Source of the DNA: Candidatus Hydrogenedentota bacterium
GTDB lineage: Bacteria; Hydrogenedentota; Hydrogenedentia; Hydrogenedentales; SLHB01
Length of the DNA: 64,000 nt
Direction of reading: 5' to 3'
Assembly: GCA_045863295.1 (NCBI GenBank)
Contig: BTWA01000028.1
Coordinates: 5,274 to 69,273 of the forward strand
Below are positions 476-33,666 of this stretch, piece after piece; the first letter of the stretch is position 1, and every line of letters begins with the position of its first letter. The position numbers and the translations under genes are program-made. The notes beneath the pieces were generated by a model, which was given only the letters and a program-made list of their open reading frames with translations, was not told the DNA's origin and searched no databases.

Positions 476-1018
476 TCAATTCGGCAAATCAGGCGCAGCA
501 GGGAAATCGCTGGGGGTATCCATTATGTGATTGAAATAATTGGTGAAAATATTGAGACAGACTACACTGACGATTTCCACGAGTTCCTGATCGGTTACGC
601 CCGCGGCCCGTAACGCATTCACGTCGTCGTCGCTCACATGACCAAGCGTATCGAGCATCCGTTGTGCAAAGCGGAGTACGGCATCGGACTTTTCGTCGAT
701 GCCTTGTCCCATTCGACTCTGAATGGTTTGCGCCTCGGTAAGGCCCGCTTTCATGGCGCCGGCTGTGTGCGCGGCCAGACAATACGTGCATTCGTTTTCT
801 TCGGCGAGCAGGAGCGCAATTTGTTCTCGCAATTTCACGGGCAGCGAGGTGCGGCCCATTGCGCCGCTGAGCGCGAGAAAGCCCTCGAGCACGGCAGGAG
901 AATTGGCCATGCATTTGTACATGCCGTAGACCTTGCCTGCTCGCTGCTGAAGGCCTTCCATAATCTCCCGGGCCTTGCCTTGTGCCTGTTCCGTATTCAC
1001 CAATTGTACTCGGGGCAT
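476..1018 (-). CDS. Carboxymuconolactone decarboxylase / AhpD-like peroxidase-fold protein
   Basis: 180 aa with the family-typical ...EENECTYCLAAHTAGA... (CxxC..H) core. An AGGAG sits 8 nt upstream of the ATG at 1018. Confidence 0.8.
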   Translation of the reverse strand: MPRVQLVNTEQAQGKAREIMEGLQQRAGKVYGMYKCMANSPAVLEGFLALSGAMGRTSLPVKLREQIALLLAEENECTYCLAAHTAGAMKAGLTEAQTIQSRMGQGIDEKSDAVLRFAQRMLDTLGHVSDDDVNALRAAGVTDQELVEIVSVVCLNIFTNYFNHIMDTPSDFPAAPDLPN

Positions 1019-1157
1019 CTTAATATCTCCTGAATACTGGGCAACTCGGATGCCGGTTTATCCGATGGCATGGTAGCAGCCATGAAACGGCGAATTCGAC
1101 ACACACGGCCCCGGCGCCAATCCAATCTACCAGGCGACGGAGCCTGCGAGGTCCGGA

Positions 1158-2717
1158 CTAGTGTGTCCATCCCGACGACAGCAACGTTCGGTCCCGAAAA
1201 AGCGCGACGTCCATCAGAGGTATGTCATCAGGGACAATAGGCCGAAACTCCATCTGGTCGAGGATATCCCGTTGGAGATCAATGCCGGGCGCGATTTCGG
1301 AAAGCAGTAGTCCTTCTGGCACGAGATGGAAAACGCATCGCTCGGTAACGAACATCGCATCCTGCTTGAGACGACGAGCCCGGTTGCCGCTATAGGTGAT
1401 CTGATCGACCTTCTGGACAAATTTGGCGGCCTTGCCTTCGGATTCAATGGTCAGTTTTCCATCTCCAACGGACGCCTTCAGGCCGCCCGCTCTGAACTCG
1501 CCGCAGAAGATACATTGCTTTGCATTTTGAGTCAGGTCGATGAACCCGCCACAGCCGATGACTTTGTTGCCCAGCCTGCTGACGTTGACATTGCCTTCGC
1601 GATCGACTTGAGCCAGACCCACGCACGTGACGTCCAACCCTCCGCCATCGTAGAAGTCGAACATTGCGGGTTGTGACACAAATGCCCGCGGGTTACGCGC
1701 TGGTCCGAAATTCTTGCCGGTGTCGGGCTGGCCACCAATAACGCCGAACTCGGTATTAAGGGTTATGTCTTCGAGGATACCTTCCTCAAAGGCCACGGCA
1801 GAAACGCCTTGGGGAATTCCCACTCCCAGATTGACGGTCATTCCAGCGGCCAGTTCGCGCGCAGCTCGGCTGCAAATAACCTTTTCGATAGTCAACGACA
1901 TAGGCTGGACGACCGAGGAGAGTGGCACGGTAGTTTCGCCGGTGAAAGACGGATCGAACTCGACGAAAAGTGAGTGTGGATGCACCTTGCGTGATGGCGC
2001 GACCACAATGTAGTCGACCAGCATGCCGGGAATACGCACCATATGTGGGTTGGCCGCCGACGCGGATAGCTGTTCGACTTGGACGATTACAGTACCGCCG
2101 CAGTTCTTCACGGCGAGCGCCAACTCGAAGGCATCCATCAGCAACGGTTCGTTCTCGCAAGTAATATTTCCCTGGGGATCAGCGGTCGTACCCCGCACAA
2201 TGCCCACATTCAATGGAATCGACTTGTAGAACAAATACTCCTCGCCATTTAATTGAACAAGCTGAACCAAATCGTTGGCGGCTTTTGTGCGACGATTGGT
2301 TTTGCCGCCGTCGATACGAGGGTCGACAAACGTCTCCAACCCAACGGTGGTCACCAGACCAGGCCGCTTGGCCGCTATCTCGCGATAGAGTTGGGCCAAC
2401 GTACCCTGCGGAAAATTGTAACACTCGACGGCGTCTTCGGCGACCATCTTGACCAACAGGTGATTGACTCCGATATGGCCCGCGATTATTCGCGAGACCA
2501 TGCCGGGCACGGCAAAATGATTCATCCCCTTTACATCTGCGCTAAATGGCCCTAAACCCGCTGTAAATAGAATGGTGAGATTATTGGGGCGTCCGGTCGA
2601 CTCAAAAGCACGCCGGAATGCTGGAAAGACTTCCTCGGTTGGCACGGGATTAACCGCAACCGTTGCATTGTCGGGCACACGGCGAATGGCCTCATCGGCG
2701 GTCACTACGGCAGGCAT
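1158..2717 (-). CDS. Family I CoA-transferase with fused alpha/beta subunits (acetate/propionate CoA-transferase, YdiF/Pct-like)
   Basis: Aligns by eye along its full length with E. coli YdiF-type CoA-transferase, for example ...EIAPGIDLQRDILDQMEFRPIVPDDIPLMD... The ORF track's start at 2741 is a TTG. The ATG at 2715-2717 (MPAVVTADEAI) has a GGGGGA 9 nt upstream and matches homologue N-termini, so I chose it. Confidence 0.8.
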   Translation of the reverse strand: MPAVVTADEAIRRVPDNATVAVNPVPTEEVFPAFRRAFESTGRPNNLTILFTAGLGPFSADVKGMNHFAVPGMVSRIIAGHIGVNHLLVKMVAEDAVECYNFPQGTLAQLYREIAAKRPGLVTTVGLETFVDPRIDGGKTNRRTKAANDLVQLVQLNGEEYLFYKSIPLNVGIVRGTTADPQGNITCENEPLLMDAFELALAVKNCGGTVIVQVEQLSASAANPHMVRIPGMLVDYIVVAPSRKVHPHSLFVEFDPSFTGETTVPLSSVVQPMSLTIEKVICSRAARELAAGMTVNLGVGIPQGVSAVAFEEGILEDITLNTEFGVIGGQPDTGKNFGPARNPRAFVSQPAMFDFYDGGGLDVTCVGLAQVDREGNVNVSRLGNKVIGCGGFIDLTQNAKQCIFCGEFRAGGLKASVGDGKLTIESEGKAAKFVQKVDQITYSGNRARRLKQDAMFVTERCVFHLVPEGLLLSEIAPGIDLQRDILDQMEFRPIVPDDIPLMDVALFRDRTLLSSGWTH

Positions 2718-2800
2718 GAATGGATTCCCCCACGGTTCCAAATACCAAGTCCCCCCACGGGAATTGTACCAGCTATTACCGCGTATTGCGGTGACAGCGC

Positions 2801-2846
2801 AAAAAAAGGACGCCCCCGAATGGTAATGGCCATTGGGGGGCGTCTA
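2801..2846 (-). terminator. Rho-independent terminator downstream of the DAHP synthase gene
   Basis: Inverted repeat ggacgcccccgaatgg-taatgg-ccattggggggcgtc (8+5 bp stem). It is preceded on the plus strand by aaaaaaa, which is a T-run after the hairpin on the minus-strand transcript. Confidence 0.7.
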
Positions 2847-2869
2847 GAAATTTACAGAATCTCAAGCGG

Positions 2870-3943
2870 TTATTGGGTAACGGCTGTCCTCTTGTGTATG
2901 ACCTCCAGCCGATCATAGGCATTGAGCAACAGGCTTTCCGTTTCTTCCCAGCCAATGCAGGGATCAGTAATCGAGATGCCGTACTCCAATTGGGACGGAT
3001 CGTCGCCCAGTTTCTGGTTACCTTCCTTGATATTACTTTCGAGCATCAGGCCGAGGATATTCTCATTGCCGGCAACGCGTTGGTCGATAACCGCCTGCCA
3101 TACAACGGCCTGTTGGCGGAAATCCTTGTTGGAGTTTGCATGGCTGCAGTCAACCATGATTCTGGGATTGAGGCCGCGCTTCGTGAGCAGGGAGAAGGAC
3201 TCGTCCAGGCTGGCCGGATCGTAATTGGTGCCAGAGCGCCCGCCACGCAGAATCAAATGTCCGTATGGATTGCCCTTGGTATTCACCACGCACGTTTGCC
3301 CGTCGGAATCGATGCCGAGAAAAGCATGGGAGTGTTCGGCGGCTTCCATGGCATCCACCGCGATTTGAAGATTCCCATCCGTCCCATTCTTGAATCCAAC
3401 AGGCATGGACAACCCACTGGCCATCTGCCGATGAGTCTGGGATTCGGTGGTTCGTGCGCCAAGCGAGGCCCACGTGACTAGATCGGCCGTATATTGGGGC
3501 GTGATGGGGTCCAGCATTTCGGTGGCCGCAGGCATGCCCATTTCATTAACTTTCATCAGAATGGAGCGGCCTTTACGCAAGCCCGTATCGATATCGAACG
3601 TACCGTTGAGGAACGGGTCATTTGTCAGGCCTTTCCAACCGACCGTGGTGCGGGGCTTTTCAAAATAGACTCGCATCACCAGACATATGCGGTCGTTGAC
3701 ACGTTTGGCCAAATCGACGAGCCGCGCGGCATAGTCCAAAGCCGCCACTTCGTCGTGAATGCTGCAAGGACCGACCACGACCAGAAATCGTGGATCTTCA
3801 CCCTTGATAATATGCTGCAGCGCGATGCGCCCTTTCACCACGGTCATGCAGGCTTTCTCGGAGATGGGGAGGAATTCCTTAAGTTCCCGCGGTGAAATCA
3901 GGGGAACAATACTGCGTATATTAATGTCCTGGGTCTTTTCCAT
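2870..3943 (-). CDS. aroG: 3-deoxy-7-phosphoheptulonate (DAHP) synthase, class I alpha (AroG/AroF/AroH type)
   Basis: Strong full-length similarity to E. coli AroG: ...VMRVYFEKPRTTVGWKGL..., ...GARTTESQ..., ...SITDPCIGWE.... The ORF track start is GTG-ATC-ATG; I chose the ATG at 3941-3943. Confidence 0.9.
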   Translation of the reverse strand: MEKTQDINIRSIVPLISPRELKEFLPISEKACMTVVKGRIALQHIIKGEDPRFLVVVGPCSIHDEVAALDYAARLVDLAKRVNDRICLVMRVYFEKPRTTVGWKGLTNDPFLNGTFDIDTGLRKGRSILMKVNEMGMPAATEMLDPITPQYTADLVTWASLGARTTESQTHRQMASGLSMPVGFKNGTDGNLQIAVDAMEAAEHSHAFLGIDSDGQTCVVNTKGNPYGHLILRGGRSGTNYDPASLDESFSLLTKRGLNPRIMVDCSHANSNKDFRQQAVVWQAVIDQRVAGNENILGLMLESNIKEGNQKLGDDPSQLEYGISITDPCIGWEETESLLLNAYDRLEVIHKRTAVTQ

Positions 3944-6089: not shown

Positions 6090-7928
6090 TTATTTGCCTG
6101 CGAGGTCGAGGCTAATCTTTTGCACAAGGGTTTCCGCATCAAGCGGAAGGCCGTTGTAGTGAAGAACGCTTTTCAGTTTGACACTTTGTTCGGGGTATTC
6201 GCTGCGAAGAATCATGGCCATTTGCGCGTCGCGGTTTTGCTCCACGACGTAGACCGTTTTGTGCCTTTCGATGAATGACTTCACCACGCCGTTCACGGGA
6301 AGTGCTCGTATCCGCAGGTAGTCCACAGCAATGCCTTTAACCTGCTGTAAATACGCCCGGGCTTCCTGCACGGCGAGATCGCTGGACCCATAGGCAATCA
6401 CACCCACCTCCGAATGGGTGGACTCGTCCACTACCGGCACGGGCACCATTTCGCGTGCCGTGTCGAATTTACGGCCAAGCCGATCGAGGTTTTTGACCCA
6501 TTCGACAGGGCTCTCGGTGTAATTCGCGAATTCATTGTGGCCCGTGCCTCGGGTGAAGTATGCCGCCTTAGGATGATTCGTACCCGGAAGCGTACGATAA
6601 GGTATGCCGTCGCCGTCCACGTCCCGGTATCGTGCAAAGCTCTCGACCTGGTTCAACTCCTCCACGCCAAGGACCTTTCCGCGCTGCAGCGGCTCGGGCA
6701 ACGGTTTCATCGGATCGGAAAGCCACTTGTTCATGCCAAGGTCGAGGTCGGTCATTACAAAAACAAGAGTTTGCAACTGTGCCGCCAGATCAAGGGCCTT
6801 GGCCGTGAATTCGTAGCATTCTTCCATGTTGCCGGGAATAAGGAGCACATGGCGGCAATCTCCATGGGATAAGAAGTACGCCTTGGAAAGATCGCCCTGC
6901 GAGGTGCGAGTGGGCAAGCCGGTGCTGGGTCCAAGCCGCTGAACGTCAACAATGACCGACGGAATCTCGGCAAAGTAGGCCAGTCCTGCCATTTCGGCCA
7001 TCAGTGAAATACCGGGGCCGGACGTGGCGGTCATGGTCCGGGCTCCCGCCCAGCCGCCGCCGACCATCATACCCATGGCGGCCAATTCATCTTCCGCCTG
7101 GACAATGGCATAGGTGGCTTTACCGGTTTCGGGGTCCTTTCGGTACTTCGCCATATACTTACTTAAGTACTCGCAGACGCTGCTGCTGGGCGTGATGGGA
7201 TACCAGGAAGCCATGGTGACACCGCCAAACATGGCGCCCAATGCGGTGGCTTCGTTGCCCTCAATCAGGATCTTGCCCTTGGCGGCGCTGGACCGGCGAA
7301 TGACATGGGTGGGATGCCGCGAAATGTGTTCGGCCGCCCAGTCAAACCCCGCCTTGGCCGCGGCCAGATTCAATTCGACCGCCTTCTGTTTTTTGCCAAA
7401 CTGGTGCGCGATGGCCCGCGTCACTTCCTCCATTTCGATGCCAAGCAGATATGCAGTGACGCCGACGTAAACGACGTTAACTACTTTGGGACGGAGACGC
7501 GTGTCTTCACAGGCCTGAGCCACCAGCTTGTTAAACGGAACAACAATTGCGTTAATGTCATCGCGCCGGCTGAAACTCTTCAGCGTGTCCGGCAAGATCA
7601 AGGTGGCATGGGGAGCAACATCTTTGACATCGGACACGATAGTGTCGGGATTCATGGCAATGGATACGTCGACGTTGGTCCGCTGAGCAAGCCAACCATG
7701 TTCATTCACCCGAATGGTATACCACGTGGGCAACCCTTGGATATTCGACGGGAAGAGGTTCTTGCCTGCGACGGGGACGCCCATTTCAAAAATGGAACGC
7801 ATGAGAATCAAGTTTGCCGATTGACTACCCGAACCGTTGGGAGTGGCGATCTTGATGACTACGTCGTTGACGACTTGCCGCGAATCGTGCGGCTGTGGAG
7901 CGGCTTCAACTTCAGTTACTTGCGACAT
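6090..7928 (-). CDS. korA: 2-oxoglutarate/2-oxoacid:ferredoxin oxidoreductase, alpha subunit (fused gamma-alpha type)
   Basis: 612 aa, with typical KorA/PorA pyruvate-flavodoxin-oxidoreductase core motifs. It is 12 bp upstream of korB, so the two look like an operon. Confidence 0.85.
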   Translation of the reverse strand: MSQVTEVEAAPQPHDSRQVVNDVVIKIATPNGSGSQSANLILMRSIFEMGVPVAGKNLFPSNIQGLPTWYTIRVNEHGWLAQRTNVDVSIAMNPDTIVSDVKDVAPHATLILPDTLKSFSRRDDINAIVVPFNKLVAQACEDTRLRPKVVNVVYVGVTAYLLGIEMEEVTRAIAHQFGKKQKAVELNLAAAKAGFDWAAEHISRHPTHVIRRSSAAKGKILIEGNEATALGAMFGGVTMASWYPITPSSSVCEYLSKYMAKYRKDPETGKATYAIVQAEDELAAMGMMVGGGWAGARTMTATSGPGISLMAEMAGLAYFAEIPSVIVDVQRLGPSTGLPTRTSQGDLSKAYFLSHGDCRHVLLIPGNMEECYEFTAKALDLAAQLQTLVFVMTDLDLGMNKWLSDPMKPLPEPLQRGKVLGVEELNQVESFARYRDVDGDGIPYRTLPGTNHPKAAYFTRGTGHNEFANYTESPVEWVKNLDRLGRKFDTAREMVPVPVVDESTHSEVGVIAYGSSDLAVQEARAYLQQVKGIAVDYLRIRALPVNGVVKSFIERHKTVYVVEQNRDAQMAMILRSEYPEQSVKLKSVLHYNGLPLDAETLVQKISLDLAGK

Positions 7929-28133: not shown

Positions 28134-28892
28134 TTACTCTTCCTTGATATAAATATTGCGGAACTGAACTAAACTGGAAGCGCTGTTCCACTCATCCTTG
28201 GCCGCATCGTAGCCGCCATGGTGCTGCAATGCAATAGGGCCCTTCGCGGGCACGCCGGGCAATTGGGCATTCTCAATCACCTTCTTGCCGTTCAATTCCA
28301 CGGTAAGACGGTCGCCTTTCATCGTAATGACAAACGTGTTCCACTCGCCCACAGGATTGTCCGCGTTCATTTTGGGGGTGACGCCGGCACGAACTTCCGG
28401 CGTTGCACTTTCGGACATCCGGTAGCCATACACCTCTCCAGACCCGATGGGCCAACACCAGATGTTGACTTGCGCATTCGGCGTGCCGCGCAAATAGATA
28501 CCGGAGTCCGCATTGGGCATCTTCGTGGTAATGGTCTTGCCGTCGGCATCCTTTTGGTCCGTTCCATCAGGCAACACGGTCGGCACAGGATAACCTTCGC
28601 CTTTGGTTTCTTTGATGCGCCACTCACAGTGCAACGTGAAATCTCCGTACTCGCCGGCGCTCCACAGACTTTGGTCGCCTTTGCGGCCTTGTTTTGGATT
28701 GCAGTCGATTGTACGGTCGACGACGGTCCAGATATCTCCCGCACCGTCGGGGAGTTTCCACCCGTCAAGATCTTCGCCATTGAACAACGGCTTCCAACCA
28801 TCCCCAGCGGGCGGCTCCGCCATCGCTGGCGACGCAAAAAAGAATGGAGTTGCGAGCAAGAGTGCGAAGCAAGGCAGAATCAGGCGCTTCAT
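28134..28892 (-). CDS. Secreted DUF1080 / 3-keto-disaccharide-hydrolase-like (concanavalin-like) domain protein
   Basis: Signal peptide MKRLILPCFALLLATPFFFASPAMA. Family hallmarks are a WKxx..G.W start, GDFTLHCEWRI, IALQHHG and VQFRNIYIKE. Confidence 0.8.
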   Translation of the reverse strand: MKRLILPCFALLLATPFFFASPAMAEPPAGDGWKPLFNGEDLDGWKLPDGAGDIWTVVDRTIDCNPKQGRKGDQSLWSAGEYGDFTLHCEWRIKETKGEGYPVPTVLPDGTDQKDADGKTITTKMPNADSGIYLRGTPNAQVNIWCWPIGSGEVYGYRMSESATPEVRAGVTPKMNADNPVGEWNTFVITMKGDRLTVELNGKKVIENAQLPGVPAKGPIALQHHGGYDAAKDEWNSASSLVQFRNIYIKEE

Positions 28893-29010: not shown

Positions 29011-29643
29011 CTACTTCAACTCCTTAATCCGGACGTCCTTGTACCAAGCCTCACTCGGCGGACCGGAATGAATCTGCAACCCAATGATCCCGGTGCGCGC
29101 AATGGCGTCGTCCTCCTCGGTATAGTCCACCGTCTGAACGCCGTTCAGCCAAAGCTGGATCCGCGGCCCTTCGCATCGAATGACATATTCATTCCACTCG
29201 CCGGGCTTCAACGCCTTCTTCAAGGTGGCCTCGTCGGGACCCGCCAACACTTTGTTCCTCCGAGACTCGTCGTACAGGCACCCCCAGTACCCTTCCCCCA
29301 TGTCAGCCTGGTAACCCGACACCTCATGATGGTCAGGAATGCGTGTGGTGCGAAACTGGACTCCTGCGTTGGCCTTTTCCCCCACTAGCTTAAACTTCAA
29401 AGTCAGCTCGAAATCGCCATACTCGCGCTTCGTACACAGAAACTCATTACGCGGTATCGCGTCCTCCATCGACCCACCCACAATGGCCCCGTCTTCGACA
29501 CGAAAGAAATCAAGATTCCCCTCCCATCCGGCAAAGGTCTCCCCATCAAACAGCGGCGCCCCGGCGTCCTTTGCTACGGCTGTTAAAACCACGGCCAATG
29601 CAACAATTGACCCAAAGCGTGCGAACGCGATCACTTTCATCAT
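29011..29643 (-). CDS. Secreted DUF1080 / 3-keto-disaccharide-hydrolase-like domain protein (paralogue)
   Basis: Signal peptide. ...FDGETFAGWEGNLDFFRVEDGAIVG..., GDFELTLKFKL, IGLQIHSG and VRIKELK follow the same family pattern as 28134-28892. Confidence 0.8.
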   Translation of the reverse strand: MMKVIAFARFGSIVALAVVLTAVAKDAGAPLFDGETFAGWEGNLDFFRVEDGAIVGGSMEDAIPRNEFLCTKREYGDFELTLKFKLVGEKANAGVQFRTTRIPDHHEVSGYQADMGEGYWGCLYDESRRNKVLAGPDEATLKKALKPGEWNEYVIRCEGPRIQLWLNGVQTVDYTEEDDAIARTGIIGLQIHSGPPSEAWYKDVRIKELK

Positions 29644-29733: not shown

Positions 29734-30294
29734 ATGAACAACTTAATAACGGCAGTGTCCGAAGTAAATGACTTCATGGCCTCAAAGGGCTGGACCTACT
29801 GCCTAATTCGCGGCCTCGCTGTTCAGCACTGGGGTGAGCCCCGCACGACGCTAGACGCAGACTTCACGTTGATTACGGGCTGGGGCCAAGAAGCCCCCTA
29901 CATAGACACACTCTTGAGTCAGTTTGAATCGCGCATACCAGATGCCCGGCAAATCGCGTTGACCCATCGGATCCTTCTCGTTCATGCGTCCAATGGCGTG
30001 CCAGTGGATATTGCACTAGGGGCCATACCTTTTGAAATCGAAATGATGAATCGTGCCACCCATATCGACCTCGCGCCAGGTTGCAGCGTCCCCTGTTGCA
30101 CTGCCGAAGACTTGTTCATTATGAAGGCATTTGCCGGCCGGCCGAAAGATTGGGGAGACGCCGAAAGCATCCTGGCCCGGCAGCCGCAACTTGATGTAAA
30201 CTACATCAGGCAACATCTATCAGATCTTTGCAGCGCCAAAAAGGATACACTAACTCTTCAGAAAGCGTTGGCACTGCTCGGAGCGGCCTCATGA
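29734..30294 (+). CDS. Pol-beta-superfamily nucleotidyltransferase-fold protein (AbiEii/DUF1814-like motif set); putative toxin/abortive-infection-type component
   Basis: 186 aa. Nucleotidyltransferase motifs ...RGLAVQHWGEPRTTLDADFTLI... ([DE]h[DE]h = DADF) and a later VDIAL (h[DE]h). The C-terminus has a K..A..R.KD..D motif (MKAFAGRPKDWGDAESIL), as recalled for AbiEii-type NTases. Its TGA stop overlaps the next gene's ATG (ATGA). Confidence 0.45.
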   Translation: MNNLITAVSEVNDFMASKGWTYCLIRGLAVQHWGEPRTTLDADFTLITGWGQEAPYIDTLLSQFESRIPDARQIALTHRILLVHASNGVPVDIALGAIPFEIEMMNRATHIDLAPGCSVPCCTAEDLFIMKAFAGRPKDWGDAESILARQPQLDVNYIRQHLSDLCSAKKDTLTLQKALALLGAAS

Positions 30295-30539
30295 ATATGC
30301 CTTCCCCAGAAGAACAGCGCACTCTTATTCTCCAATGGGAGGAAACCGGCCGATTCCTCGACGAACTCCGGCGAAAAGAACTGCGCGGCAAACCCTACAA
30401 CTGGCAAGAAGTCGACACCCTGCTCCAACTCGCCGACAACTACGACGGCCCCATCGATTCCAGCGGCATCATCGAAATGCAACGCCTCTTCATGCAACAC
30501 CCATTCTATAAAGACCCCAAAAACAAAATCACCGGCTGA
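30291..30539 (+). CDS. Small hypothetical protein (82 aa) translationally coupled to the upstream NTase-fold gene
   Basis: ATG at 30291 overlaps the upstream TGA, with GGAG 8 nt upstream. MNMPSPEEQRTLILQWEETGRFLDELRRKELRGKPYNWQEVDTLLQLADNYDGPIDSSGIIEMQRLFMQHPFYKDPKNKITG. No recognisable domain. Confidence 0.4.
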   Translation: MNMPSPEEQRTLILQWEETGRFLDELRRKELRGKPYNWQEVDTLLQLADNYDGPIDSSGIIEMQRLFMQHPFYKDPKNKITG

Positions 30540-30909
30540 TACCCAGTACAAAGCCTCGCAAGCTGGAGTTTCCTAGGCATCCTAATCTACAGTACAGACG
30601 CAAGGAGGCGGTAGCCAGACAGAAAATAGGATTCGGGGGAAAATGCCGCGAATTTTTGGCGGTCGATTTGGCATCGTGCCGATTTCTCCTTACCTGCAAA
30701 TCTTGTTGCGAAAGCCTTTCAAAAATTCATACCTTTGCGCCGGGTTTTCGGGTTTATCCTTGAATCCAAAACCGTTCTCGCGGTACACTACGCCGTATTT
30801 TGTCCCCAGGGGTTTTTTTGGCGGATGGGGTTCGTGATCGCGACTGGGTTCGCGCCTACCTCACTCACTGCAGCACGCTCTCCACGGGCGATTTAAGGAG
30901 ATTGGACAC

Positions 30910-33666
30910 ATGGCTAAAGCGAAGAAATACGTGTATTTCTTTGGCGGCGGCAAGGCCGAGGGCAAAGGAAGCATGAAGGAGCTGCTGGGCGGCAAGGGTG
31001 CAAACCTCGCCGACATGTGCGGCTTGGGAATTCCGGTACCGGCCGGCTTCACCATCACGACCGAAGTCTGCACCGAGTACTACAAAAACAAGAACAAGTT
31101 GCCCAAGGAAGTCGGCATTCAGGTCGAAGAAGCCCTGAAAAAGGTCGAAAAGGTCATGGGCAAGAAGTTCGACAATCCGAAGGACCCGCTCTTGCTGTCG
31201 GTCCGCTCGGGTGCGCGCACCTCGATGCCGGGCATGATGGAAACCATGTTGAACGTCGGCCTGACCAAGGCGACGATTCCAGGGCTCATCGCGCAGAGCG
31301 GCGACGAACGCTTTGTGTGGGACGCGTACCGCCGGTTGATTACCATGTACTCCGACGTGGTGATGGAAAAGGCGGCGGGAATTACGCCGGAAGACGGCCA
31401 CGGCGTGCGTCATCAGCTCGAACACGCGATGGACGCCATGAAGAAGGCCAAGGGAGTAACGGAAGACACCGACCTCGACGCGAACGATCTGAAGCAGCTC
31501 TGCGAAGAGTACAAGAAGATCGTGAAAAGCGTGTTGGGCAAACCCTTCCCCGATGATTCCCGCGAACAGATGTGGGGCGGCGTCAAAGCCGTGTTTCAAT
31601 CCTGGATGGGCCGCCGTGCAATTTCCTACCGCCGTATCGAAAGCATCCCCGACGAATGGGGCACGGCCGTCAATGTGCAGGCCATGGTGTTCGGCAACAT
31701 GGGCGAATCGTCCGCCACGGGCGTGGCGTTTACGCGCGACCCCTCGACGGGCGACGAGAAGTTCTACGGCGAATGGCTGGTGAACGCGCAGGGTGAAGAC
31801 GTGGTGGCGGGTATCCGCACGCCATCGCCCCTGAACGAAGCCACCAAGACCGATCACTCGAAGCACCTTGTGTCTCTGGAGAAAGCCAATTCAAAGGCCT
31901 ACAAGGAACTGGTCGCGATCCGGAACAAGCTGGAAAAGCACTATCGCGACATGCAGGACATCGAATTCACGATCGAAAAAGGCCGTGTGTGGATGCTTCA
32001 GACCCGCACGGGCAAACGCACCGGCACGGCTGCGGTCCGCATGGCCGTGGAGATGTGTGAAGACAAGCTGATCGACAAAACCACCGCGATCATGCGCGTC
32101 AAGCCGGAACAGTTGGATGAGTTGCTCCACCCGATGCTCAATCCCGCCTCCGAAAAATCGGCGAACGTGCTGGCAAAGGGCTTGCCGGCGGGTCCCGGCG
32201 GCGGCGTCGGCCAAATCGTGCTCGATGCCGACAAGGCCGAACAATGGTCGAAACAAGGCAAAAAGGTAATCCTGGTCCGCAACGAAACGTCGCCAGAAGA
32301 CGTCCACGGAATGCACGTGGCGCAAGCCATCCTGACCGCCAAGGGTGGCATGACCTCGCACGCGGCCCTCGTGGCCCGCGGTTGGGGCAAGTGCTGCATC
32401 GTGGGTTGTTCCGCGCTGGACATCAATACGAAGACCCGTGAGGTCAAAGTAAACGGCAAGACCTTCAAGGAAGGCGATTGGTTCTCCTTGAACGGTTCGC
32501 GCGGCATTGTCTACGAGGGCCAGGTCCCTGTGAGCCCGGCGGACCCGGACAAGAACCCCTGGTACAAGAAGTTGATGAAGTGGGTCGACGAGATCCGCGA
32601 AATCAAGGTGCGCACCAACGCCGAGCGCCCGGAAGACGCGCAACAGGCAATTGTGTTCGGAGCGGAAGGTATCGGCCTGGCCCGCACCGAGCATATGTTC
32701 TTCGAACCGGAACGCATCATTCACGTGCGTGAGATGATCCTGGCCGAAGACGAAAATGTCCGCCGCGCCGCTGTGATGAAGCTGCTGCCCTTCCAGAAGA
32801 AGGACTTCATCGGCATTTTCAAGGCCATGGCCGGTAAGCCTGTGACGGTGCGTCTGCTCGATCCGCCGCTGCACGAGTTCATCACGCTCGACGACGCTCA
32901 AGTGAAGGAATTGTCGAAACAGATCGGCATTTCCCCGGAAAAGATCACGAGCCGCATGCGCGCGCTACACGAGTTGAATCCCATGCTGGGCCACCGTGGC
33001 TGCCGCCTCGGCATCGCCTATCCGGAAATCACCGAAATGCAGGCTCGAGCCATCCTCGAAGCCACTGCTGAACTCACCAAGCAAAAGGTCAAGGTGCTGC
33101 CGGAAATCATGGTGCCTTTGGTCGGCCACGTCAACGAATTGGCCCACCAAGAAGCCATCATCCGCCGAGTGGCGGACGAAGTGGCCAAGAAGTACGGCGT
33201 GAAGAAGCTCGAGTACATGGTCGGCACCATGATCGAAGTACCCCGCGCCGCGCTTACGGCCGACAAGATCGCGAACGTGGCGGAGTTCTTCAGTTTCGGC
33301 ACGAACGATCTGACTCAAATGGGCTTCGGTTTTTCGCGCGACGACATCGGCGGTTTCCTGCCCTCGTATCTTGATGGCAAAGTCTTGCCAGCCGACCCCT
33401 TCCAGACCCTGGATCAGGAAGGCATCGGCCAACTCATCAAAATGGCGGTGGAACGCGGCCGCGATTCGCGCCCCGGCCTGAAGTGCGGCATCTGTGGCGA
33501 ACACGGCGGCGATCCGGCTTCCGTCAAATTCTGCCACCGTGTTGGCTTGGATTATGTAAGCTGTAGCCCATTCCGCGTGCCAATCGCGCGCCTTGCGGCG
33601 GCGCAAGCGGCGATCGAAACGCCGCGTAAGTCCAAGGGCAAAAAGAAGGCGGGCAAGAAGAAATAG
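30910..33666 (+). CDS. ppdK: Pyruvate, phosphate dikinase
   Basis: Full-length PPDK with ATP-grasp N-terminus, phosphohistidine region ...GGMTSHAALVARGWGKCC... and a PEP-utilising C-terminus. A strong AAGGAG RBS precedes the start. Ends with an unusual Lys-rich tail ...ETPRKSKGKKKAGKKK. Confidence 0.95.
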   Translation: MAKAKKYVYFFGGGKAEGKGSMKELLGGKGANLADMCGLGIPVPAGFTITTEVCTEYYKNKNKLPKEVGIQVEEALKKVEKVMGKKFDNPKDPLLLSVRSGARTSMPGMMETMLNVGLTKATIPGLIAQSGDERFVWDAYRRLITMYSDVVMEKAAGITPEDGHGVRHQLEHAMDAMKKAKGVTEDTDLDANDLKQLCEEYKKIVKSVLGKPFPDDSREQMWGGVKAVFQSWMGRRAISYRRIESIPDEWGTAVNVQAMVFGNMGESSATGVAFTRDPSTGDEKFYGEWLVNAQGEDVVAGIRTPSPLNEATKTDHSKHLVSLEKANSKAYKELVAIRNKLEKHYRDMQDIEFTIEKGRVWMLQTRTGKRTGTAAVRMAVEMCEDKLIDKTTAIMRVKPEQLDELLHPMLNPASEKSANVLAKGLPAGPGGGVGQIVLDADKAEQWSKQGKKVILVRNETSPEDVHGMHVAQAILTAKGGMTSHAALVARGWGKCCIVGCSALDINTKTREVKVNGKTFKEGDWFSLNGSRGIVYEGQVPVSPADPDKNPWYKKLMKWVDEIREIKVRTNAERPEDAQQAIVFGAEGIGLARTEHMFFEPERIIHVREMILAEDENVRRAAVMKLLPFQKKDFIGIFKAMAGKPVTVRLLDPPLHEFITLDDAQVKELSKQIGISPEKITSRMRALHELNPMLGHRGCRLGIAYPEITEMQARAILEATAELTKQKVKVLPEIMVPLVGHVNELAHQEAIIRRVADEVAKKYGVKKLEYMVGTMIEVPRAALTADKIANVAEFFSFGTNDLTQMGFGFSRDDIGGFLPSYLDGKVLPADPFQTLDQEGIGQLIKMAVERGRDSRPGLKCGICGEHGGDPASVKFCHRVGLDYVSCSPFRVPIARLAAAQAAIETPRKSKGKKKAGKKK

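Follow-up and report, generated by a model that had tools for sequence, protein, structure and literature searches.

DUF1814 toxins (AbiEii, MenT) form a large family, and to our knowledge their control by auto-phosphorylation was worked out only in 2024–2026 and for two unrelated antitoxin types only. MenT1, MenT3 and MenT4 add nucleotides to the 3' ends of tRNA (PMC7450476, PMC10435456). In MenAT1 of Mycobacterium tuberculosis (Rv0078A, MenT1; Rv0078B, MenA1; PDB 8AN4, 8AN5 and 8RR5), the bound antitoxin MenA1 spans two protomers of MenT1 and triggers the auto-phosphorylation of T39 (PMC10435456, PMC11375011), and antitoxin-induced auto-phosphorylation has been extended to AbiEii (bioRxiv 10.64898/2026.01.19.700257). 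Within MenT1, G27 belongs to the GG nucleotide-binding motif, T39 is the phospho-acceptor, D41 and D43 form the metal-binding DxD motif and K137 is the catalytic lysine (PMC10435456, PMC11375011); mutant constructs are listed for T39, D41, K137 (K137A) and D152 (D152A) (PMC10435456). The locus described here is found on contig BTWA01000028.1 (positions 5,274 to 69,273) of a Candidatus Hydrogenedentota metagenome-assembled genome (MAG; GenBank assembly GCA_045863295.1), and this whole stretch of 64,000 nucleotides is referred to as the window. Two overlapping open reading frames, ORF A and ORF B, whose products are annotated in the MAG as hypothetical proteins (AMXMBFR84_36640 and AMXMBFR84_36650), probably form a chromosomal MenAT1-like toxin–antitoxin (TA) module, for which toxicity, a tRNA target, binding of the partner and phosphorylation are inferred. 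The kind of module, MenAT/AbiE (DUF1814), is known, while an undescribed and widespread partner family and a clade-wide inversion of the gene order are new.

ORF A (29734–30294, plus strand, ATG start) encodes a DUF1814/AbiEii-family, MenT1-like nucleotidyltransferase of 186 residues, a putative toxin. The ATG at 29734 is the earliest start codon of its frame, which opens only 15 nt upstream. A profile search of this protein, proposed as a check in an earlier note made from the sequence alone, assigned it to AbiEii/DUF1814 and to no housekeeping family, with a score for PF08843 of 26 bits (E 1.1e-5), above the Pfam gathering threshold of 22.5 bits; 28 of 31 relatives also matched PF08843 at E ≤ 0.01. 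Among PDB sequences, the sole significant match was M. tuberculosis MenT1 (8an4, 8an5, 8rr5), with an E-value of 4e-5 when the single sequence was used and 2.2e-10 (8an4) when a profile of the family was used. The AlphaFold2 model of ORF A was of high confidence (predicted local distance difference test, pLDDT, 94.7; predicted template modelling score, pTM, 0.89), and with this model all of the top five Foldseek matches in the PDB were MenT1, four of them with a template modelling (TM) score of 0.74–0.77 and the fifth, the T39-phosphorylated form 8rr5, with 0.57. For 8an5_B, the E-value was 8e-11 and TMq was 0.76 over 181 aligned columns. Far weaker matches were obtained with LnuA (E 4e-4), ANT(2'')-Ia, TM1012 and CCA-adding enzymes.

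The translation of ORF A contains the motifs D41-A-D43-F, V91-D92-I-A-L and M130-K131-AFAGR136-PK-D139-WG-D142-AESIL. Residue conservation was counted over 84 family members from genomes: G27, T39, K131, D139 and D142 are present in all of them, D92 and R136 in 83, and D41 and D43 in 81. In the HMMER alignment, G27, T39, D41 and D43 of ORF A correspond to the MenT1 residues of the same number, K131 to K137 and D142 to D152. On the plus strand of the window, R26 and G27 of the hGG nucleotide-binding motif are encoded at 29809–29814, with arginine (CGC) in place of the first glycine as judged from the column counts and the MenT1 alignment; T39-L-D41-A-D43, with the residues equivalent to the MenT1 phospho-acceptor and metal-binding aspartates in the alignment to 8an4, at 29848–29862; the third acidic residue of the catalytic set, D92 (hDh motif, VDIAL), at 30007–30009; and the segment from K131 to D142 (KAFAGRPKDWGD) at 30124–30159. 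The Pol-beta motif set that had been read from the sequence (a G-containing loop, DADF and VDIAL), as well as the C-terminal K..A..R.KD..D, is present, and it is conserved in 81–84 of the 84 members. Apart from the exception at R26, the protein has the features by which the DUF1814 family is recognised, that is, a score above the Pfam threshold, the catalytic motifs hG[GS], DxD, hDh and K...D..D, and a Ser/Thr phospho-acceptor (T39). Since the alignment to MenT1 is in register and these residues are conserved over the 84 members, ORF A is a MenT1-type minimal DUF1814 nucleotidyltransferase.

Two cysteines, C23 and C122 (29800–29802 and 30097–30099), are present in 83 of the 84 family members and absent at the aligned positions of MenT1. 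The adjacent C121 is also Cys in 27 of the 84.

ORF B (30291–30539, plus strand, ATG start) encodes a helical protein of 82 residues that belongs to an unannotated family and is taken as a putative antitoxin from its adjacency to A, its model and profile searches. It had no match in Pfam, NCBIfam, PADLOC (E ≤ 10) or the PDB. A profile search with B returned 525 homologues, none with a Pfam domain or a name, and an exhaustive profile search gave 1,991 clusters at E ≤ 1e-3, of which 918 reached E ≤ 1e-10. Family members are 70–90 residues long. Over 42 sequences, W16, L23, S58, G59 and E62 are invariant and R27 nearly so, and L60, Q64 and F67 are conserved at ≥90%. Two segments concentrate this conservation: residues 6–31 (30306–30383, plus strand), a long N-terminal helix with pLDDT of 90–96 and the conserved W16, L23, R27 and L31 on one face, and residues S58–F67 (SGIIEMQRLF; 30462–30491, plus strand), the most conserved motif of the family, with the consensus SGLVEQQRxF. 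The AlphaFold2 model consists of helices 6–31, 38–49 and 60–69 with a loop before the last one; it is not compact (pLDDT 82.6, pTM 0.42) and shows neither a DNA-binding domain nor a helix-turn-helix (HTH). Foldseek with this model gave nothing (E > 7), as is expected of a model made of extended helices. A reading of B as a HEPN protein was rejected: the window's B carries an R-x4-H (RLFMQH), but its histidine is not conserved in the family.

The distribution of the pair was studied in 86 loci, 80 of them from a scan of one genome per species and six from metagenomes. These loci span more than 10 phyla, with sources including Hydrogenedentota, Kiritimatiellia, Verrucomicrobiota, Lentisphaerota and Planctomycetota, together with Acidobacteriota, Bacteroidota, Nitrospirota, Bdellovibrionota, Omnitrophota and others. 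In 84 of the 86 loci, a homologue of B adjoins A and is read from the same strand, in unrelated contexts, which answers the question of co-occurrence raised in the earlier note. Pairwise distances of A and B are correlated (Mantel r = 0.78), a value reached by 0 of 999 permutations. Flanking genes are common to only 44 of 3,741 locus pairs; the sampled neighbourhoods vary from sugar metabolism and ABC transport to other TA pairs and genes resembling those of restriction-modification, and in most relatives they are metabolic or transport regions. Strict co-occurrence and co-divergence show that A and B are one unit, and the pair has the features generic to TA modules, namely small, co-directional and linked genes that are inherited together in varied contexts. 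Starting from one B homologue, a look-up found a gene of 190 residues overlapping its end by 4 nt, where A stands in that clade; it has no Pfam hit on record and is known by position alone.

In the two exceptions, L047 (~2100–2277) and L050 (~6380–6760), A is truncated near the C-terminus, B is missing and the downstream sequence is unrelated; these are probably decayed copies or assembly breaks. Two loci, L030 and L051, are divergent A-then-B modules on different contigs of one MAG (JAFGHX01, Kiritimatiellae Zod_Metabat.16), which suggests paralogous copies in one genome if the binning is correct. Other TA genes stand beside some relatives, with a Gp49(HigB-like)/HTH_37 pair in L005 (4970–5690) and a PIN-domain gene in L043 (2052–2426).

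In a neighbour-joining tree, the A sequences fall into two cleanly separated clades that differ in gene order, A-then-B in 41 loci, the window included, and B-then-A in 34 loci. A 4-nt xTGA overlap is kept in both orders, in 38 of 41 A-then-B loci and 28 of 31 B-then-A loci. Since the clades are split by order and both keep the overlap, the toxin-first arrangement is a derived or ancestral state of one clade and no oddity of this genome. The claim that the order is opposite to that of AbiEi–AbiEii is thus right for the window's clade, whereas the sister clade has the canonical order. Where B is the downstream gene, a Shine-Dalgarno (SD)-like motif stands before it in 30 of 41 loci, and where A is downstream, in only 4 of 31; with such a bias, the toxin-first clade would tend to make B in excess. 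In the window, the ATGA that joins the stop codon of A to the start codon of B, and through which translation is coupled, lies at 30291–30294, and a GGAG within the 3' end of A (30280–30283, plus strand) lies 7 nt upstream of the start of B. A longer form of B, of 103 residues from a TTG at 30228, was considered and is unsupported, the start of B being at the xTGA overlap in the 38 of 41 same-order relatives.

In five loci from Kiritimatiellia, the Planctomycetes–Verrucomicrobia–Chlamydiae (PVC) group and Lentisphaerae, B is fused C-terminally to a domain of ~200 residues (L017, 6558–7352; L028, 1409–2275; L034, 1501–2424; L039, 6564–7382; L043, 958–1827). This domain was PF02481, DNA_processg_A (DprA-like), in all three fusions tested (L017, L034 and L043), and it matched the PADLOC antitoxin PsyrA in both of those tested (L043 and L017; E 6e-16), with a further match to ShosA in L043 (E 1e-7). 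No PsyrT- or ShosT-like toxin gene was found beside the fusions at the three loci examined (L017, L039 and L043). The DprA-like domain was also considered as a conserved third gene of the module, and this was rejected, the domain being found only as a fusion to B at the five loci. Since the fused domain serves as an antitoxin in other systems, the fusions are in keeping with B as the neutralising partner and are read as a hint.

Compared with the systems described to date, the module is closest to MenAT1, which is the best match in sequence and fold, also has a minimal DUF1814 toxin of ~190 residues and is likewise a tightly linked two-gene operon. Its partner is very small and helical and has no DNA-binding domain (PMC10435456), as in B, and the long helix, loop and short helix predicted for B parallel what has been published on MenA1 (PMC10435456). 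The suggestion that the pair might be an unusual minimal variant stands as far as the minimal form is concerned, but it is not without precedent, as MenT1 (196 residues) and MenA1 (68 residues) make up a minimal system that has been characterised by experiment (PMC10435456, PMC11375011). The two systems differ in several respects. Identity between ORF A and MenT1 is only about 20%; B is longer than MenA1, to which homology is undetectable, and has an extra invariant C-terminal SG..E..Q motif; the antitoxin gene lies upstream in MenAT1, whereas the toxin gene comes first in the window's clade; MenT1 lacks the two cysteines of the family; and the family is hosted not by Actinobacteria but by uncultured Hydrogenedentota, PVC-group bacteria, Acidobacteriota and others. 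Within the MenAT1 subfamily, the module therefore shares the minimal MenT1 fold, and neither an antitoxin homologous to MenA1 nor an antitoxin gene in upstream position is found in the window.

The toxins of AbiE, MenAT3 and MenAT4 exceed ORF A in length by roughly 100 residues. AbiE (Streptococcus agalactiae, Lactococcus), MenAT3 (TglT/TakA) and MenAT4 belong to the same PF08843 family, with the same four catalytic motifs and a Ser/Thr two residues before the DxD for antitoxin-induced auto-phosphorylation, as T39 (PMC11375011; bioRxiv 10.64898/2026.01.19.700257). Their antitoxins are COG5340 proteins with a winged HTH, encoded upstream and about 22 kDa in the case of MenA3 (PMC11375011), whereas B has 82 residues and no HTH, and the gene upstream of A encodes a PF06439 hydrolase in divergent orientation rather than a COG5340 AbiEi antitoxin. 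The PsyrTA and ShosTA systems are linked to the family by the PsyrA/ShosA-like domain on five B relatives, a domain that the window's B does not have. DUF6036 (PF19502), DUF2204, TM1012, LnuA and ANT(2'') share the Pol-beta fold with ORF A, with Foldseek TM scores of about 0.5, much weaker than for MenT1; DUF6036 scored 12.8 bits with ORF A (cut-off 23.6), and weak DUF6036 matches were obtained in 19 of 31 relatives. Several of these nucleotidyltransferases act on antibiotics, not RNA.

In the proposed mechanism, A would be a tRNA-targeting nucleotidyltransferase toxin and B, whose translation is coupled to that of A on one mRNA, its cognate protein antitoxin. B would bind the toxin through its conserved amphipathic N-terminal helix, its invariant C-terminal motif SG..E..Q or both, and would thereby occlude the active site and probably sequester A. 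It may also push T39 toward the bound nucleoside triphosphate, upon which the toxin would auto-phosphorylate and switch itself off. This would be a mixed type II/type VII mode, as shown for MenA1–MenT1. A more specific proposal, and a rather unlikely one, is that B represents a new and widespread class of mini-antitoxins for MenT-like enzymes, comprising about 2,000 clusters at 50% identity, and that it would not simply be a MenA1-like plug. Its S58-G59...E62..Q64 would reach the active site of the toxin, either as a pseudo-substrate, B itself being nucleotidylated or phosphorylated, or as the trigger of T39 auto-phosphorylation. Under this proposal, the flip in gene order and the PsyrA/ShosA-like fusions would mark B as a neutraliser that is portable and has been combined anew with other domains of antitoxins.

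The partner is a putative third antitoxin family, unannotated and very small, on a minimal MenT1-type enzyme, and it is spread over numerous uncultured phyla in either gene order. Should B neutralise A, the module would put to the test whether, as a general off-switch rule, repositioning of the T39 loop by any helix is sufficient, and some 2,000 clusters of small proteins now listed as hypothetical would gain a function. The gain in genome annotation is modest, two hypothetical proteins becoming a MenT-like toxin and a putative antitoxin.

Several results weigh against reading the pair as a MenAT1-like TA module. ORF A had no match in NCBIfam, and none with PADLOC models even at E ≤ 10; it was also without a match by tblastn against PLSDB plasmids and INPHARED phages and in an IMG/VR scan. 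For the partner, the MenA1 sequence was taken from PDB 8an5_C by means of a query rebuilt from published primer sequences. The profile of B did not match 8an5_C among PDB sequences at E ≤ 10, and homology of B to MenA1 was not supported, with an hhalign probability of 0.1%. An in-register match of the N-terminal helices of B and MenA1 was seen afterwards, in which L12, L14, E18, G20, R27 and R32 coincide, but its ungapped profile score was −12.5 bits (z = 2.0) and was reached by 2.5–4% of shuffles; because the alignment was chosen after the fact, this match is not significant and may serve as a lead only. As modelled, B resembles MenA1 in size, helical shape and the lack of a DNA-binding domain, and homology between them is not demonstrated. 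Regarding toxicity, MenT1 was not toxic in E. coli and MenT2 showed no detectable activity (PMC10435456, PMC11375011), and therefore membership of the family is no guarantee of toxicity. No sigma-70-like site was found upstream of the module, although the organism may use other promoter types, and no operator-like inverted repeat was found upstream of A. Transcription of MenAT1 is not autoregulated (PMC11375011), which matches both a partner without a DNA-binding domain and the lack of such a repeat here.

The last of these points is R26, found in the window's ORF A only, with glycine in 83 of 84 family members and in MenT1. Its codon (CGC, 29809–29811) differs from GGC by one base, and the window's A may be attenuated or inactive through G26R. 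The module could then be a decaying remnant, with a toxin inactivated by this change and a pair that is silent in this genome even if the family is active elsewhere, as the truncated copies of A without B in L047 and L050 indicate that the family does decay. Both ORFs are full length, though, the 4-nt overlap and every other catalytic residue are preserved, and a single-base change in a MAG could be an assembly or population variant, so that decay at this locus is regarded as possible but doubtful. The pair could also be an AbiE-type abortive-infection system, in which infection releases or activates the nucleotidyltransferase, translation is shut down and the phage cycle is aborted. The Pfam family in which ORF A falls takes its name from AbiEii, some B relatives are fused to the domain that matches the defence antitoxins PsyrA and ShosA, and L087 (7577–12561) adjoins an SNF2/PLD helicase and an MmeI/Eco57I-type methyltransferase and L017 (3574–5898) an N6_N4 DNA methylase; in addition, TA modules of this superfamily are reported to be able to protect against phage (PMC7725324). 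Nevertheless, neither protein is recognised by the PADLOC defence-system models even at E ≤ 10, an AbiEi/COG5340 partner is lacking, the neighbourhood in the window is housekeeping and contains no defence island, the flanks of most relatives are metabolic or transport genes, and no copy of the module was found in the phage, plasmid or viral collections. This makes an abortive-infection role unlikely. Of the earlier proposal of a toxin-antitoxin or abortive-infection pair, the TA part is supported by the AbiEii/MenT1 family and by the co-occurrence in 84 of 86 loci, and the abortive-infection part is not, given the lack of a PADLOC match, of a defence island and of phage or plasmid carriage.

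The pair might also not be a TA module at all but a two-subunit regulatory or housekeeping enzyme that causes no growth arrest, with A as the subunit that nucleotidylates a small molecule or some target in the cell and B as the subunit for specificity or regulation. In line with this, the contexts are mostly metabolic and the module was not found on mobile elements. The A family is strongly conserved in length (about 186 residues) and in sequence (45–64% identity across phyla), its distant structural neighbours LnuA, ANT(2'') and TM1012 are small-molecule nucleotidyltransferases, and the conserved C23 and C122, absent from MenT1, hint at a family-specific feature. Such an enzyme would hardly be expected from a patchy spread over more than 10 phyla with almost no conserved flanks, two divergent copies in one MAG, truncated A without B at two loci, the invariant phospho-acceptor T39 and the fusion of B to antitoxin-type domains in some relatives; moreover, the MenT1 toxin is the best match by a wide margin (E 8e-11 compared with 4e-4 for LnuA). 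It is considered improbable, to a similar extent as abortive infection. The roles could also be reversed, as in HEPN/MNT type VII systems, which likewise consist of a gene for a small Pol-beta-fold nucleotidyltransferase followed by an overlapping gene for a small helical partner. There, the gene that comes first encodes the nucleotidyltransferase, which acts as the antitoxin, and the second gene encodes a HEPN RNase with Rx4-6H. A would then be an antitoxin that nucleotidylates a toxin B, with the invariant S58 as the modification site, and the Ser-Gly of the most conserved B motif, the order of the genes and the RLFMQH of the window's B are in line with it. The family of B has no conserved Rx4-6H, however, the protein is too short for a HEPN domain and its three predicted helices have no compact fold; A carries the C-terminal K...D..D domain of DUF1814 toxins rather than the short MNT architecture, B comes first in the sister clade, and the fusions join B to antitoxin-type domains. 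Reversed roles are accordingly judged highly improbable, and a MenAT1-like TA module is still the preferred reading.

Regarding the genomic context of the module, the pair of 186 and 82 residues with its ATGA overlap was confirmed from coordinates and translations, as was the downstream gap of 370 bp (30540–30909) to ppdK (30910–33666), which is on the same strand as the module. The carbohydrate-related genes noted upstream proved to be two tandem paralogous PF06439 (3-keto-disaccharide hydrolase/DUF1080) genes on the minus strand, at 28134–28892 and 29011–29643, and the product of the latter has a hydrophobic stretch at the N-terminus. Together with ppdK, an M48 peptidase and a disulphide isomerase, these hydrolases make up the housekeeping neighbourhood in the window. 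No second copy of the module was found within the window, and an Rfam search around the module, the gap included, gave no match. The gap contains weak terminator-like hairpins at 30668–30682 and 30780–30796 as well as short repeats, and it probably holds the ppdK promoter and leader. In the relative L006, ppdK (950–3727) also adjoins the module, upstream of it and on the opposite strand, with no other flanking gene in common with the window; in both the window and L006, the module is thus found in the region upstream of ppdK, in opposite orientations.

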